Assembly (NCBI GenBank): GCA_003707115.1
Contig: PPNB01000021.1
Coordinates: 62,001-126,000, forward strand
Source of the DNA: Tortispora ganteri
Lineage: Eukaryota
Direction: 5' to 3'
DNA: 64,000 nt
In this document: positions 45,728 to 51,134 of the stretch, one piece after another
How positions within the stretch are numbered: the first letter of the stretch is position 1
How the letters are laid out: each line of letters opens with the position of its first letter
Program-made: the position numbers and the translations under genes
The notes under the pieces: generated by a model
What the model saw: only the letters and a program-made list of their open reading frames with translations
What the model was told of the DNA's origin: nothing
The model's database searches: none

Positions 45728-48550
45728 ATGACCAACTATTCAGCCGCACAACCTAAACGATCATCACTGAAACCACCAAAACCACCAAAACCGCTGCATT
45801 TATCGGCATCACCAATTCCTTCACTTGGACACTCTGACTCGTCTCTGTCCAATGACATAACTGCTGACCTCGACGTTCCAGAACCGCACCCGTGTTCCCC
45901 GCGTCCTTTTTCTTCTACTTGTTCAGTGCTTCAGCCCTCTTCGCTACCCATCCCGTCACTAGCTAGATCTTCTACATCACCAGCTCCACCACCATCACGC
46001 GGTTCGAGATCCGTTGGCTCGCGATCCGTCAGCCCTGCTCCCCCACCGCCACCGCGACCAGGCTCACTGGCCCGAAGTACATCACCTCTCGACACCGTCA
46101 TCCTTGCTGCTGGCGCTCCACCACCGCTACCTTCTAGACCATCCTCGGGAGCTATTGAGTCTAAGAAAGATGCTGCCATACGCAGAGGTCTTGAACTCAA
46201 AAGTGTCGATATCTCGAAATTTGAACCACCACCAAAAATGGCTCTTTCATTTACAAGAAAGTCCACATATCCTCAGGACAAATCACAACTTCAAGTTCAA
46301 AAGCATTCTCAACCAGAATCAAAACCTACAATGCCATTAGCATTCGAACCAGACTCATTTCCAACTCCACCTTCCGGCTGTACAACACTACCACACAACC
46401 CTGATACAGCCCCCAGGACATTCCCTACCGTCAGAAGCACCGGAAAGTCAGTGCCTTACTACAATTCGCGTGTACGCAATGTGTATACCAAAGACGCCCG
46501 TGTCATCGCTTGCAACAACCACAGACTCTACGTTATGGGTAACATGCTTACAGTCACAGATCTTATCTCTGGGCGACACATATACTCATATGGGACTGAA
46601 GAAACGAGGTTTACAGCTATTGGATTTTGCGGTACTGAGACATGGATCGGCACTAAAGAAGGTTCCCTGAAAGTTATAGATCACCACGGAAGTTTAATTG
46701 AAACCAGAAAACGTTGCCATAGTGCTCCTGTGCATGCCATTTATTCTTTAGACAACTCTATGTGGACTCTTGACATAGATGGCAGACTTAAGATATGGTT
46801 TGCAGACAAAGCTAGCGACTCTTTGTTCCCCACATTGCAACATTCTCCCGGTACGTATAAGGTGCTGCCACATTTTTCAGTTGCGCTGCTTGTCAATAAA
46901 GAGCTCTGGGTAGCCAGAAAGAACATTATCAGCGTATACACTCCACTGGCAGATAACTTTCAGAAATGCCAGTTCCATATCCCATCTGACGACAAGATCG
47001 GCGCTGTTACCTGCGCTGCTGTTATAGAAGGCAAGTCATCTGATGTGTATATTGGTCACGCGTCTGGTCATGTCTCAGTGTTTTGTTCGAATACATACAA
47101 ATGCAAGAAGACTGTGTTTGTATCGATCCACAGGATACTGACGATGTGCAGCGTGGGATCGACTATATGGCTTGTTCTGAGTTCAGGTCGCGTTCAGGTA
47201 TACGACCCCGAGGGCGAGATCTGGACTATGTTGCGTGACTGGAAGGAATTCAGCGGCAATACTACTTACTTGTTACAAACCAGGATTGCTTCTGACCACT
47301 CACGCATTGAACACTATGAGCTGCCCGTAGTTCTACTGGGTCCGGACCATCAGGTACGTATCTGGAACGGATTGCTCAAAGACGACACCGTGAACAGATG
47401 TGCTATAAGTAAATATGAGGAATACTGTAAATTTGACAGTATCACGGTATTTGCATGCACGTGGAATGCGGGTGACGCTAAGGCCGCCGGTGTTAGTGGA
47501 TCTTGTCGGCACAAGTTTACTGAAATGCTTCAAACCGCTAAAGGCTGCGATATATTGTTTTTTGGGTTCCAGGAATTAATTGACTTGGGTAACAAGCAAA
47601 TGGCCGCGAAGTCTATGTTCAGATCAAAACGGTCGCGCAAAGTAGATCAGGGAAAGTCAGGACTTGCTATTGAATACAAAGAATGGCTGGAAACGCTCAC
47701 GACGATGGTTGACATGGAGCTTAAGAGTGATCCATACACCATGGTCTACAGCGATGGTATGATGGGGTTGTTTTCTGTGGTCTTTGTCAAGAATCAGAGA
47801 ATGATGAATATTTACTCCATCCAGGCGTCTTTGGTGAAGACAGGACTTGGCGGACTGCACGGTAATAAGGGTGCATTGGTAGTCCGCTTCAGATACGACG
47901 ATACACCTATATGTTTTGTGAATTGTCACTTAGCTGCGGGGCAAACGAGCATTATACAGAGGAATGACGACTTTGTGTCTATTCTCGAGAGTAAGTTAAC
48001 GGCAGTTGATTCAGAAGAGGCTAGGGCTACACAGCTATTTGCGAACAACGGTAATGGGTCATTGATTCTTGATCACGAAGTGTGTTTTGCGCTTGGCGAT
48101 ATGAACTATCGCATAGGGCTTCCACGCGGCGACGTTATGAGACTACTGTCTGCAGACAATTTAGACCGGCTATTAGAATCAGACCAGCTGCGTCAGGAAC
48201 AGAACAGGAATCCAGATATGAAACTACGTCTTTTTAACGAGAAAGAGATTAAATTTATGCCGACATACAAGTACGACGTTGGCACAAACAACTACGACTC
48301 TTCATCAAAGATGAGAGTACCCGCATGGTGTGATCGGATATTCTACAGAGCCGGTAATGAAAGAACCAGTATTGAGGCGTTGGACTATCGCCGGCATGAA
48401 ATAATGCTGTCGGACCACAGACCCGTGACGGGTATCTACAAGGTACGTGTGAAGGACGTCGATGAGGCTAAATTTGCGCAGGTGGTTAGGCGATGTCGCG
48501 ATGAATGGAAGCTGAGATTCACTAAGAGATTTTTGAATACTTCAGATTAA
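45728..48550 (+). CDS. Inositol polyphosphate 5-phosphatase with Pro-rich N-terminus and WD40-like region
   Basis: CTWNAG, FGFQELIDL, GNKGA, CFVNCHLAAG, GDMNYRI, PTYKYD, PAWCDRI, SDHRPV. Confidence 0.92.
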   Translation: MTNYSAAQPKRSSLKPPKPPKPLHLSASPIPSLGHSDSSLSNDITADLDVPEPHPCSPRPFSSTCSVLQPSSLPIPSLARSSTSPAPPPSRGSRSVGSRSVSPAPPPPPRPGSLARSTSPLDTVILAAGAPPPLPSRPSSGAIESKKDAAIRRGLELKSVDISKFEPPPKMALSFTRKSTYPQDKSQLQVQKHSQPESKPTMPLAFEPDSFPTPPSGCTTLPHNPDTAPRTFPTVRSTGKSVPYYNSRVRNVYTKDARVIACNNHRLYVMGNMLTVTDLISGRHIYSYGTEETRFTAIGFCGTETWIGTKEGSLKVIDHHGSLIETRKRCHSAPVHAIYSLDNSMWTLDIDGRLKIWFADKASDSLFPTLQHSPGTYKVLPHFSVALLVNKELWVARKNIISVYTPLADNFQKCQFHIPSDDKIGAVTCAAVIEGKSSDVYIGHASGHVSVFCSNTYKCKKTVFVSIHRILTMCSVGSTIWLVLSSGRVQVYDPEGEIWTMLRDWKEFSGNTTYLLQTRIASDHSRIEHYELPVVLLGPDHQVRIWNGLLKDDTVNRCAISKYEEYCKFDSITVFACTWNAGDAKAAGVSGSCRHKFTEMLQTAKGCDILFFGFQELIDLGNKQMAAKSMFRSKRSRKVDQGKSGLAIEYKEWLETLTTMVDMELKSDPYTMVYSDGMMGLFSVVFVKNQRMMNIYSIQASLVKTGLGGLHGNKGALVVRFRYDDTPICFVNCHLAAGQTSIIQRNDDFVSILESKLTAVDSEEARATQLFANNGNGSLILDHEVCFALGDMNYRIGLPRGDVMRLLSADNLDRLLESDQLRQEQNRNPDMKLRLFNEKEIKFMPTYKYDVGTNNYDSSSKMRVPAWCDRIFYRAGNERTSIEALDYRRHEIMLSDHRPVTGIYKVRVKDVDEAKFAQVVRRCRDEWKLRFTKRFLNTSD

Positions 48551-48625
48551 TACAGATATAAATCAGAGCATAACTATTAATAATAATCACGGCTAATGAT
48601 AACGATAGATGTTTAGAGATGGTCA

Positions 48626-49219
48626 TTACACTGGACGCGCCTTGTCTATGCGCGAGTGGTATTCGTGGAGTGCATTTATGGCCTCCTTCCGCTTAGCGCG
48701 TGCGTCTGCGTCACCTGTTGTGTCTATGCCATCAAGTGCGACCATTTTCTGAAGTACAAGTTCACCAAGTTTCCTGTGCTCAAGGTCCTGGTGTTTCTTG
48801 TCTGCAGGGGGCTCAGCCTCGAACTTCTCTATCAGGGGTACAATTGCGGTCTCTGTATCATGGACTAGCGCGTCAATCTTTTCTGAGCTGGACTGCGGTG
48901 GCGTTTGTTCAACTTTTGGTTTCGATTTAGTGTGACGTTTGTGTGATTTCGGCAAACTGCAGAGGATTCGCGAGTCAGGTCTGATTCCATAGGACAAAAG
49001 GGACGAACTGTCGTTAGTGAGTTTCTTGCCGGCATAGATCAAAGTGAAGTCATCCGTTTTCACAATATCCGCGACGAGTTTGCGTAAATAGCCGACAGTG
49101 ACTTTGCCGCGGGATACTTCGCCGGGTGTGTCAAACTGGATTCGATAGTTGTTTACGAACACAGCTTCTAAGTCCGGGCTGGAATTGTCCGCGGACAGGC
49201 CGAAGAAGCGGCGCATCAT
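48626..49219 (-). CDS. BAG-domain Hsp70 co-chaperone with ubiquitin-like domain (Bag1 type); probable non-AUG N-terminal extension
   Basis: UBL-like LIYAGKKL..D...L.SYGI; BAG-like ELVLQKMVALDGIDT.GD..ARAKRKEAI. First ATG is 49219; frame is open up to 49504. Confidence 0.88.
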   Translation of the reverse strand: MMRRFFGLSADNSSPDLEAVFVNNYRIQFDTPGEVSRGKVTVGYLRKLVADIVKTDDFTLIYAGKKLTNDSSSLLSYGIRPDSRILCSLPKSHKRHTKSKPKVEQTPPQSSSEKIDALVHDTETAIVPLIEKFEAEPPADKKHQDLEHRKLGELVLQKMVALDGIDTTGDADARAKRKEAINALHEYHSRIDKARPV

Positions 49220-49549
49220 GATCACAGATACAAGTGCAGCCACAAGTCCTGCAAACACCGAATAGTTCTGGTGAGGTTGCAGATAGGAAATGTACGGTTG
49301 GCAGGCTTTGATTATGGGCTCAAGCGCCGTGGTAAATAAACTAATGTCGAGAATGGTTATCGTTTGTGAAGAATCAGCGGTGTCGGACAGACTGGGGGGT
49401 GGATAGACGGCGGTAGGGTAACTACACTTCGGAGTTTTGTTTGAATGCAGATATAGCGGTGAAAGAGTGCAAATTTGATAGCGGTAATGGTTTAAGCAGA
49501 TTAATTAGTTTAGTTATGAGGCCAGAATTTTTTTGGTTTAAGTGCGGTT

Positions 49550-49595
49550 TCGTGACGGTGTCGTGACGGTGGCGTGACGGTGTCGTGACGATGTC
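49550..49595. repeat. 11-bp tandem repeat (TCGTGACGGTG) x4
   Basis: tcgtgacggtg tcgtgacggtg gcgtgacggtg tcgtgacgatg tc in the BAG/NPY1 divergent intergenic. Confidence 0.9.
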
Positions 49596-49958
49596 ATTCA
49601 AGTAGGTTCAGTCGCTTCTGGCGGCAACTAATTGACAGTCGTGTTTGTAACATTTCTATTGCAAAACGTCAATGTAATACAATAAAATCAACGAAATAAA
49701 GAGAGTAAACTAAACTTATTGTTCAGCGTATTTCGACTTTTAAACCATTTCAAGACTCATATATACCTCATTAGATTATGTAACTTGGAAAGCGAAATAA
49801 ACTTTTTGCGGGGTCATACATCCTATCTACCGAAAGACAAATAAAAAAGCAGGGCTCGAAACTGTTGACCCTTGCACTTGGAAATAACGTCTTTACTTCT
49901 GAGATACCAGCTAAATTCTTGTCGATTGTCATCTAAATTTATAGATTGCACCAAAAAT

Positions 49959-51134
49959 ATGTCGACACTGCTGACTAGACGGTTCGGCAACCCCGGTGAC
50001 TGCTTCTATGCGGGCAACCCGCTGAACAGGGTCTCCTTCAAACGAGAAGATAATGCATTCCTAAGCATGGCGTTAACACACCAATCAGCACTTTTTTTGC
50101 CATTAAATGATCTGAATCCTGCAGTTAAACAGGATGACCGTTCGACACTGCTAAATTACATCCCTTACGATGTAGTTAAACCACTTATCGGCAACCCATT
50201 TGCTCTATCCGATGAGGAACGCGAGAAACAGTTCGATTCGTCCAAGTATCAACCATTGGTTGTATTTTTGGGCTTGAATACTAGTGAAGAGGGCCTGGAT
50301 GCTGGTGAGTATAAGGGACGACCCTACTTTGCTGTCGACCTGACAGTCAGCACAGAGTTTGCAGCCGAACAAGCGCTCGCGCAGAAAGTTATCGAAGACA
50401 TTGTCGCTGACGGCGCATCATTCCCGGCAGTACGTTTTGGGTTTGCGCTATCTCCAACAGATGCTGCGGTTTACGCACAGGCGCGCATGTTTGTAGACTG
50501 GAATAACCGTAACCCGTACTGCGGCGGCTGTGGCCAGCGCACCTTAACAGCATCCGCCGGCTGTAAGCGCGTGTGCCCAAGTACTGACCAAGCTGGCGAG
50601 CGCAAATCTTGCCCCACACGTGGAACGCTTACCAACTTGTCGTTCCCGCGCACCGACCCGACTGTGATTGCTGCCGTCGTCAACGCGAAAGGCGATAAGA
50701 TCCTCCTAGGCAGAAACAAGCGGTTCCCCAAACAGTTCTACTCGTGTCTTGCAGGGTTCGTTGAGCCTGCCGAATCTATTGAAGAGGCTGTACGCCGCGA
50801 GATCTGGGAAGAAGCAGGCGTTCATTGCGGCCGCGTCGTAGTTTACGTTACGCAGCCTTGGCCTTACCCGGCGAATCTCATGCTCGGCTGCATCGCCGAA
50901 GCCAAGGAAGACGGTCATGATGTTTGTCTCAGCCATGATCCAGAACTACACGACGCCAGATGGTTTGATTTTGACAAGGTATCGGTGGCACTCGATTACT
51001 CTAAGACTTGTGACACAATGGCAACACCTCCGCCAGATGACGAGTTTCTACTCCTTCCGGGTCCAAACGCTGTCGCGCATACTCTTATTGATGCTGTCGT
51101 GAACTCACAAATTCATCTGCCTCCGAGAATGTAA
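49959..51134 (+). CDS. NPY1: NADH pyrophosphatase (NudC Nudix family), likely peroxisomal
   Basis: DWNNRNPYCGGCG, FPRTDP, Nudix box GFVEPAESIEEAVRREIWEEAG, QPWPYP; C-terminal PRM is PTS1-like. Confidence 0.93.
   Translation: MSTLLTRRFGNPGDCFYAGNPLNRVSFKREDNAFLSMALTHQSALFLPLNDLNPAVKQDDRSTLLNYIPYDVVKPLIGNPFALSDEEREKQFDSSKYQPLVVFLGLNTSEEGLDAGEYKGRPYFAVDLTVSTEFAAEQALAQKVIEDIVADGASFPAVRFGFALSPTDAAVYAQARMFVDWNNRNPYCGGCGQRTLTASAGCKRVCPSTDQAGERKSCPTRGTLTNLSFPRTDPTVIAAVVNAKGDKILLGRNKRFPKQFYSCLAGFVEPAESIEEAVRREIWEEAGVHCGRVVVYVTQPWPYPANLMLGCIAEAKEDGHDVCLSHDPELHDARWFDFDKVSVALDYSKTCDTMATPPPDDEFLLLPGPNAVAHTLIDAVVNSQIHLPPRM

Follow-up and report, generated by a model that had tools for sequence, protein, structure and literature searches.

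A predicted membrane anchor encoded upstream of the first AUG of a BAG1-type co-chaperone gene in Tortispora ganteri and its relatives: a probable non-AUG-initiated isoform

We analyzed 64,000 nucleotides from the yeast Tortispora ganteri (GenBank assembly GCA_003707115.1, contig PPNB01000021.1, positions 62,001 to 126,000 of the forward strand), the whole of which is called the window in the following, and focused on a minus-strand gene that is predicted to encode a BAG1-type Hsp70 nucleotide-exchange co-chaperone. Analysis of the open reading frames (ORFs) of the window places this gene in a stop-to-stop frame of 292 codons (49504..48626, minus strand), which is closed at its upstream end by an in-frame TAA (49505..49507). 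The first ATG of the gene lies at 49219, has an A at position -3 and is directly followed by a second ATG. The AUG-initiated coding sequence (CDS; 48626..49219, minus strand) starts with this tandem AUG (MMRRFFGL) and encodes 197 amino acids followed by a TAA stop codon. Among database proteins, the hypothetical protein CANCADRAFT_43338 of T. caseinolytica NRRL Y-17796 (202 amino acids, 89-92% identical) comes closest, and its model begins at the same MMRR.

The CDS comprises a ubiquitin-like (UBL) domain and, at its C-terminus, a BAG domain. The BAG domain (48638..48877, minus strand) exceeds the 23.4-bit threshold of the Pfam family PF02179 with a score of 66.2 bits (E=3.8e-18). In a model obtained from AlphaFold2 (AF2) it forms a three-helix bundle with a predicted local distance difference test score (pLDDT) above 90, which spans residues 148-231 as counted from a candidate ACG start upstream of the AUG (see below). 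The Pfam ubiquitin match of the UBL domain (48956..49165, minus strand) reaches 20.3 bits and thus stays under its cutoff of 25.4; however, homologues carry precomputed PF00240 hits, and the AF2 model (mean pLDDT 85.5) shows the elements of a beta-grasp fold at residues 56-125 of the extended form. A Foldseek search with this model retrieved ubiquitin and UBL chains at a TM-score of 0.6-0.75 and a root mean square deviation of 2.3-3 Å. Its top fold match in the PDB is Arabidopsis AtBAG1 bound to HSP70 (4hwi_B). The modeled order of domains, with the UBL N-terminal to the BAG domain, is that of the BAG1-type (UBL + BAG) subfamily.

The reading frame of the BAG gene extends upstream beyond its first AUG. 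An earlier note on this DNA had pointed out that the frame stays open for about 95 codons upstream of 49219, as far as the TAA at 49507-49505, and that no AUG occurs in any frame of this strand between 49220 and about 49594. Our ORF analysis agrees on both counts: 95 codons are open, and the closest upstream ATG in any frame of the minus strand lies at 49597, which leaves a gap of 378 nt. Directly before the AUG, the frame reads ...HQNYSVFAGLVAALVSVI|MMRR and thereby contains a transmembrane-like segment (YSVFAGLVAALVSVIMM; 49214..49264, minus strand) that is followed by RR. As this segment spans the AUG, the AUG-initiated form lacks it. The segment is supported by Kyte-Doolittle windows, by comparison with shuffled sequences and by a helix in the AF2 model. 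Windows of 19 residues over it score 1.6-1.9. Over the last 15 residues ahead of the AUG (YS and then VFAGLVAALVSVI), the Kyte-Doolittle mean amounts to 2.25.

As a null model, we employed 5000 dinucleotide-preserving shuffles of the 377-nt leader. A mean of at least 2.25 over the last 15 residues was reached in only 0.0002 of the shuffles, in line with the earlier description of a hydrophobic, anchor-like stretch ending in basic residues. A frame open over at least 95 codons occurred with a probability of 0.023 and the absence of any ATG with a probability of 0.004, the latter value being biased because the region had been picked for its lack of ATG. None of the 5000 shuffles combined all three properties. 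Contigs of two DNA runs (X1 and X2) show no differences to the window over 48600-49700. With their identical depths, both runs probably belong to a single data set, from which the window itself may have been derived, so they are not independent of it.

Between the TAA and the AUG, the frame contains 18 near-cognate codons, and only one of them, an ACG at 49330 (49328..49330, minus strand), combines a purine at -3 with a G at +4. Its context (TTTACC ACG GCG, with A at -3 and an alanine codon, GCG, next) is as strong as the earlier note had judged it to be. The second candidate named there, an ATT at 49354 preceded by ACC, is also present and lies in the context ATAACC ATT CTC. Initiation at the ACG would yield an N-terminal extension of 37 codons (49220..49330, minus strand), which is open and free of ATG in any frame and, with Met at the ACG, reads (M)ALEPIIKACQPYISYLQPHQNYSVFAGLVAALVSVI. 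In the AF2 model of this form, helices of moderate confidence (pLDDT of 60-76) span residues 4-16 and 24-41. Using codon-usage log-odds trained on 25 long ORFs of the window, the segment from the ACG to the AUG scores 0.166 per codon in the BAG frame, while the two alternative frames score -0.69 and -0.37. Coding windows have a mean of 0.294 (standard deviation 0.163), and the 95th percentile of out-of-frame windows is -0.022. The codon usage of this segment is thus coding-like, and it is so in the BAG frame only. We also considered a hairpin at the ACG (minimum free energy -16.9 kcal/mol, z=-1.82; 9 of 200 shuffles folded as well). It lends no support to the ACG as a start, because its stem begins at the ACG itself and not ~15 nt downstream.

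Homologues were gathered with HMMER in an exhaustive pass over 1.84 billion representatives, which returned 387 hits at E<=0.001, and the best 150 of these 387 were used. Two word-index homologue searches with alignments, with at least 12 hits each, added 14 proteins to give a total of 164. All 164 match a profile whose first position is the conserved Met. For 40 of these, the alignment starts within its first six positions; the remaining 124 show no alignment to the N-terminal motif and stayed unclassed. Among the 40 aligned homologues, 27 start within four residues of the conserved Met (MFRKL..., MRRFF..., MRKFF...). The 13 with residues upstream of it are all hydrophobic over the 13-15 residues directly before the Met (13/13; Kyte-Doolittle means of 1.59-2.87), and they span yeast-type as well as Pezizomycotina-type lineages. 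The Met itself is invariant, in 12/12 sequences of a Pezizales-type alignment (A3) and in 12/12 of a yeast-type alignment (A4), and it is doubled in Tortispora and Geopyxis (MMRRFF). As judged from these sequences, a predicted hydrophobic helix directly before the conserved Met is a family-wide feature.

Of the gene models carrying an organism name at NCBI, all six, from T. caseinolytica, Wilcoxina mikolae, Geopyxis carbonaria, Sphaerosporella brunnea, Sugiyamaella lignohabitans and Wickerhamiella sorbophila, start at the conserved Met. The annotation of the fungal BAG1 orthologue is that of a small soluble protein in 6/6 named genomes. The S. lignohabitans homologue carries the label Bag102. 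The models that include the helix stem mostly from metagenome or run assemblies. In at least one of them (P0028), the first 'M' is a GTG in the DNA of its locus (L002, 2716-3927), a fungal contig on which this gene was called in prokaryotic style; an upstream 'Met' in metagenome-derived eukaryotic models is therefore no proof of an AUG.

DNA of relatives came from a scan of metagenomes with alignment A3. Six of the 495 matched stretches encode a relative, and these represent three distinct sequences: L001, L002 (identical to L003) and L004, to which L005 and L006 are nearly identical. The 110 pattern matches in bacterial and archaeal genome contigs included no relative. The AUG form of L004 is 88% identical to the Wilcoxina mikolae protein, those of L001 and L002 about 71%. 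In the three distinct loci, the frame before the conserved Met is open over 167, 180 and 101 codons and contains no in-frame Met, and the distance from the Met to the closest ATG upstream, taking all frames together, is 571, 646 and 538 nt. Amino-acid conservation between the loci begins abruptly at the residues K-L-A, encoded by AAG CTG GCG, AAG CTG GCG and AAA CTG GCG, respectively. The conserved CTG has A at -3 and G at +4 in 3/3 distinct loci and precedes the Met by 82, 82 and 64 codons. K-L-A is also found in the extended models P0099, P0029, P0154, P0158, P0159 and P0160. From the CTG to the Met, the loci are free of ATG in every frame (192-246 nt), and they remain so for a further 325-400 nt above the CTG.

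The 82-codon extensions of L001 and L002 differ by 26 synonymous and 21 non-synonymous changes (Fisher p=4.8e-6), which fall on codon positions 1, 2 and 3 in numbers of 12, 5 and 30. The ratio of non-synonymous to synonymous rates (dN/dS) is 0.225 in the main frame, as compared to 1.1 and 2.2 in the other frames. For the other two locus pairs, dN/dS of the extension amounts to 0.354 and 0.267, and in the main ORF it is 0.085-0.116. Thus, the extension of the Pezizales-like loci is under purifying selection in the main frame. Over the 300 nt upstream of the CTG, in contrast, the alignment of L001 and L002 contains indels of 1, 22, 17, 1, 7, 38, 9 and 1 nt. Because conservation begins at the CTG and non-triplet indels lie upstream of it, coding should start at or just before this codon. 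Taken together, the Pezizales-like loci appear to be a clear case of a conserved CUG-initiated extension with a transmembrane helix abutting a conserved AUG, and their leaders seem to have been purged of AUG.

The extensions of these loci (L001, 3016-3261; L002, 3010-3255; L004, 2977-3168) also carry proline-led repeats of 11 residues between the CTG and the transmembrane helix. The repeats (SPYIERxxxLL; DPYISHLDSLL in L001) occur in one (L004) to four (P0154) copies and resemble proline-punctuated amphipathic repeats. Another extended homologue (P0034) begins with M-A-S where others have (K)-L-A-S, which would fit an AUG replacing the CUG at the homologous start.

With this information at hand, the reading that we consider probable is that the T. 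ganteri gene gives rise to a membrane-anchored isoform by non-AUG initiation and to a soluble isoform by AUG initiation, through leaky scanning. One mRNA would thus encode two proteins. A minority of the scanning ribosomes would initiate at a near-cognate codon upstream of the AUG, most likely the ACG at 49330, read as Met, although another near-cognate might serve. With the ACG as the start, about 37 residues would be gained; the last 17 of them would make up a signal-anchor transmembrane helix with Arg-Arg on its downstream side. The resulting long isoform of 234 amino acids might be tethered to the endoplasmic reticulum (ER) or the nuclear envelope with its UBL and BAG domains facing the cytosol. 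The remaining ribosomes would reach the tandem AUG at 49219, which marks the cytosolic end of the helix, and produce the soluble isoform of 197 amino acids. Most ribosomes should do so, because non-AUG starts are weak and no other AUG intervenes on the way from the ACG to 49219. The positive charges behind the helix, and the need of the UBL and BAG domains to meet cytosolic Hsp70 and the proteasome, suggest a signal anchor with its N-terminus out and its C-terminus in the cytosol. For this yeast, we infer the translation of the extension, the use of ACG 49330 as its start, the membrane topology and the leaky-scanning ratio from the DNA. The earlier note had also proposed membrane-bound and soluble isoforms by leaky scanning, and this proposal is favored by the comparative evidence, i.e., the helix in 13/13 extended homologues, the three AUG-less loci and the frame-specific selection.

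In the window, the layout of the Pezizales extensions recurs in reduced size: GCG (Ala) follows a near-cognate codon that has A at -3 and G at +4, an ATG-free run (111 nt in the window) leads to the AUG, and a helix abuts the Met, with Arg-Arg downstream in the window. Several observations nevertheless weigh against our reading. A hidden Markov model (HMM) of 11 Pezizomycotina extensions was compared with 1869 six-frame fragments of the window, and the fragment of the BAG ORF is not among the 226 listed at E<=100; the best E-value in the window, 0.32, belongs to an unrelated fragment. As the extension HMM does not match the BAG ORF, homology between the extension in the window and those of the Pezizales is not demonstrable. 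The only sequence link is a QPYISYL in the window's extension, which we likened to the SPYIER-type repeat. Among 91,969 residues of six-frame fragments, the pattern PYI[ES].[LV] has a single occurrence, which lies inside this very extension; yet it counts as a hint only, because it was picked after both sequences had been seen. Furthermore, the 378-nt gap ranks 5th among the gaps between the 992 ATGs on the minus strand and is, taken alone, unexceptional, and a transmembrane helix would usually be longer than the 15-17 residues of the hydrophobic stretch. Finally, the true start codon is uncertain, because the 58 codons above the ACG (49331..49504, minus strand) are open as well, yet not coding-like (log-odds of -0.054 per codon). 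They may represent a leader or include an earlier start such as the CTG at 49390. The near-cognates in this part are in poor context, and this CTG combines an A at -3 with a T at +4.

Some of these points also favor another explanation, in which the upstream frame is an untranslated 5' leader, open and hydrophobic by chance or as the decaying relic of an ancestral transmembrane exon that has lost its start codon, and only the soluble protein of 197 amino acids is made. In addition to the unremarkable ATG-free gap and the failure of the extension profile to match the window's ORF, the gene model of the T. caseinolytica orthologue has that same Met as its start, and 37 successive open codons are in themselves not uncommon. 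We regard an untranslated leader as unlikely all the same. The hydrophobicity before the Met is hardly ever reached by shuffled leaders, the codon usage is coding-like in precisely the BAG frame, and the helix is placed identically in all 13 homologues with upstream residues, in both types of lineages, while the equivalent region of the Pezizales-like loci is under purifying selection. A neutral relic would not retain a helix over such distances.

Alternatively, the extension might be translated and the two isoforms derived from two transcripts, a long mRNA that includes the near-cognate codon and a short one that begins downstream of it. Alternative transcription starts are a common route to dual localisation, and the sequence data do not fix the transcription start. 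We hold this to be rather improbable, since the stretch from the near-cognate codon to the Met is ATG-free in every frame, both in the window (111 nt) and in the three loci (192-246 nt), and the leaders continue without ATG for a further 267-400 nt upstream. Such a leader is the signature expected where ribosomes must scan through to reach the AUG. Moreover, two transcripts would require a non-AUG start here too.

It is also conceivable, although quite improbable, that only the anchored form matters, with the conserved Met being an internal residue at the membrane boundary and the soluble product a minor by-product. Near-cognate codons are less efficient at initiation than AUG, and the first AUG, with A at -3 and placed after an ATG-free leader, should capture most ribosomes. 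The conserved Met, invariant in 12/12 sequences of both alignments and doubled in Tortispora and Geopyxis, has the look of a conserved start codon. What speaks for the anchored form alone is that Bag102 and Snl1 act as anchored proteins (PMC3907333; PMC3962485).

Lastly, 5' introns are common in some yeasts, but an upstream exon with a normal AUG that is spliced into the open frame and missed by the gene model is very improbable, as a pattern search found neither a GT[AG]NGT donor nor a TACTAAC branch site in 49220-49960 of the minus strand, and as conservation in the Pezizales-like loci begins at a CTG in start context with non-triplet indels immediately upstream and no ATG for 325-400 nt more.

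A dual product by leaky scanning, the reading preferred here, can be compared with several known systems. The Schizosaccharomyces pombe protein Bag102 has an N-terminal transmembrane segment and pellets with microsomes (PMC3907333), which agrees with the membrane anchoring stated in the earlier note. Like the gene in the window, Bag102 also has a UBL domain, and the C-cytosolic orientation that we propose is the one reported for it (PMC3907333). Bag102 and Snl1 both consist of a single N-terminal transmembrane helix followed by cytosol-facing domains that end in BAG, to which the long form in the window may be likened. By their description, however, these two are annotated with an ordinary AUG before the transmembrane helix, whereas the helix in the window lies upstream of the first AUG. 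With this AUG at the end of the helix, a soluble form would be possible from the same gene, unlike in Bag102 and Snl1 as described.

Human BAG1 produces from one mRNA a CUG-initiated long isoform (BAG-1L) and shorter, AUG-initiated ones (PMC9082881; PMC6821271). The protein belongs to the same family (UBL + BAG), and its non-AUG long isoform likewise differs in localisation (PMC9082881; PMC6821271). Between the human and the fungal extensions there is no detectable sequence similarity. The extension of human BAG1 carries nuclear-localisation information and is not known to include a membrane anchor. That a non-AUG long isoform next to AUG-initiated short ones is an ancient inherited trait of BAG1, so that the fungal CUG/ACG anchor and human BAG-1L descend from one dual-start ancestor, seems doubtful to us. 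If it were so, how stringently start codons are selected would set the membrane-to-soluble ratio of an Hsp70 exchange factor, and stress that relaxes this stringency would move BAG activity to the ER or the nuclear envelope.

Targeting signals from non-AUG starts have been described for other fungal genes. In Saccharomyces cerevisiae, alternative starts include ACG in ALA1 and TTG (UUG) in GRS1, and all near-cognate codons except AAG and AGG can initiate (PMC2909995). Fungal 6-phosphogluconate dehydrogenase carries a cryptic peroxisomal targeting signal of type 2 (PTS2) in the annotated 5' untranslated region (UTR), which is translated from a non-AUG start and conserved across fungi (PMC7214817). 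What these three cases have in common with the proposal for the window is an N-terminal targeting signal gained through a near-cognate start upstream of the AUG, with dual localisation as the outcome of leaky scanning. Their signals direct proteins to mitochondria or peroxisomes, whereas the element in the window would be a signal-anchor transmembrane helix on a chaperone cofactor. The comparative signature of the BAG loci has its counterpart in cpc-1 of the Pezizomycotina, where the frame above the AUG is open, near-cognate codons in good context are conserved and dN/dS is below 1 in the main frame; this is a different gene, however, and its extension serves a regulatory purpose (PMC5487733).

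The earlier note had further mentioned a Neurospora BAG gene proposed to use a near-cognate start. We did not find such a gene in the literature searched; PMC5487733 concerns cpc-1, and the words 'chaperone' and 'transmembrane' are absent from its main text. More generally, no report of a non-AUG start for a fungal BAG gene was found in the literature searched, which included passages of PMC5487733 and PMC6467101 and had most subscription journals outside its coverage. Anchored BAG proteins of fungi, targeting extensions with non-AUG starts and human BAG1 in its CUG-initiated form are each already known separately. What appears to be new is a non-AUG-initiated anchor on fungal BAG1 orthologues that seems to be conserved across Ascomycota and is missing from the six named gene models.

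If our reading is true, all six of these models miss a membrane anchor located in the annotated 5' UTR, and constructs made from the annotated CDS would never reveal the anchored form. It would also connect the fungal BAG proteins regarded as 'soluble' to Bag102 and Snl1 with their anchors, and the few targeting signals that arise from fungal non-AUG starts would be joined by a signal-anchor helix. The gene would then offer a tractable case of start-codon choice dividing an Hsp70 exchange factor between membrane and cytosol, as a counterpart to human BAG1 with its CUG isoform.

An 11-nt tandem repeat of 4.6 copies (49545..49595) lies at the 5' border of the ATG-free leader in the window; its unit reads CGGTGTCGTGA on the plus strand. 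The array overlaps an upstream ORF of 19 codons (49538..49597, minus strand), which starts at the nearest upstream ATG, is in the same frame as the BAG gene and ends with TAA. The contigs of the two DNA runs break at the repeat, leaving a piece of 136 nt with a depth of 52.7, as compared to 86.6 and 80.2 on its flanks; this lower depth may reflect copy-number variation. The motif of the repeat (ACCGTCACG) is not enriched elsewhere in the window, with 13 matches at up to one mismatch versus 7.95 expected; 9 of 100 shuffles reached 13 matches, and four of the 13 lie inside the array itself.

The BAG gene is flanked by two plus-strand genes. Its divergent neighbor (49959-51134) is of the NUDIX NADH-pyrophosphatase type, with NUDIX, NUDIX-like and zinc-ribbon domains, and shares with it an intergenic region of 739 bp. 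The convergent neighbor (45728-48550) resembles inositol-polyphosphate-5-phosphatases (Exo_endo_phos2, E=2.4e-80). Its stop lies 75 nt from that of the BAG gene (48626, minus strand), so the 3' UTRs of these two genes probably overlap.

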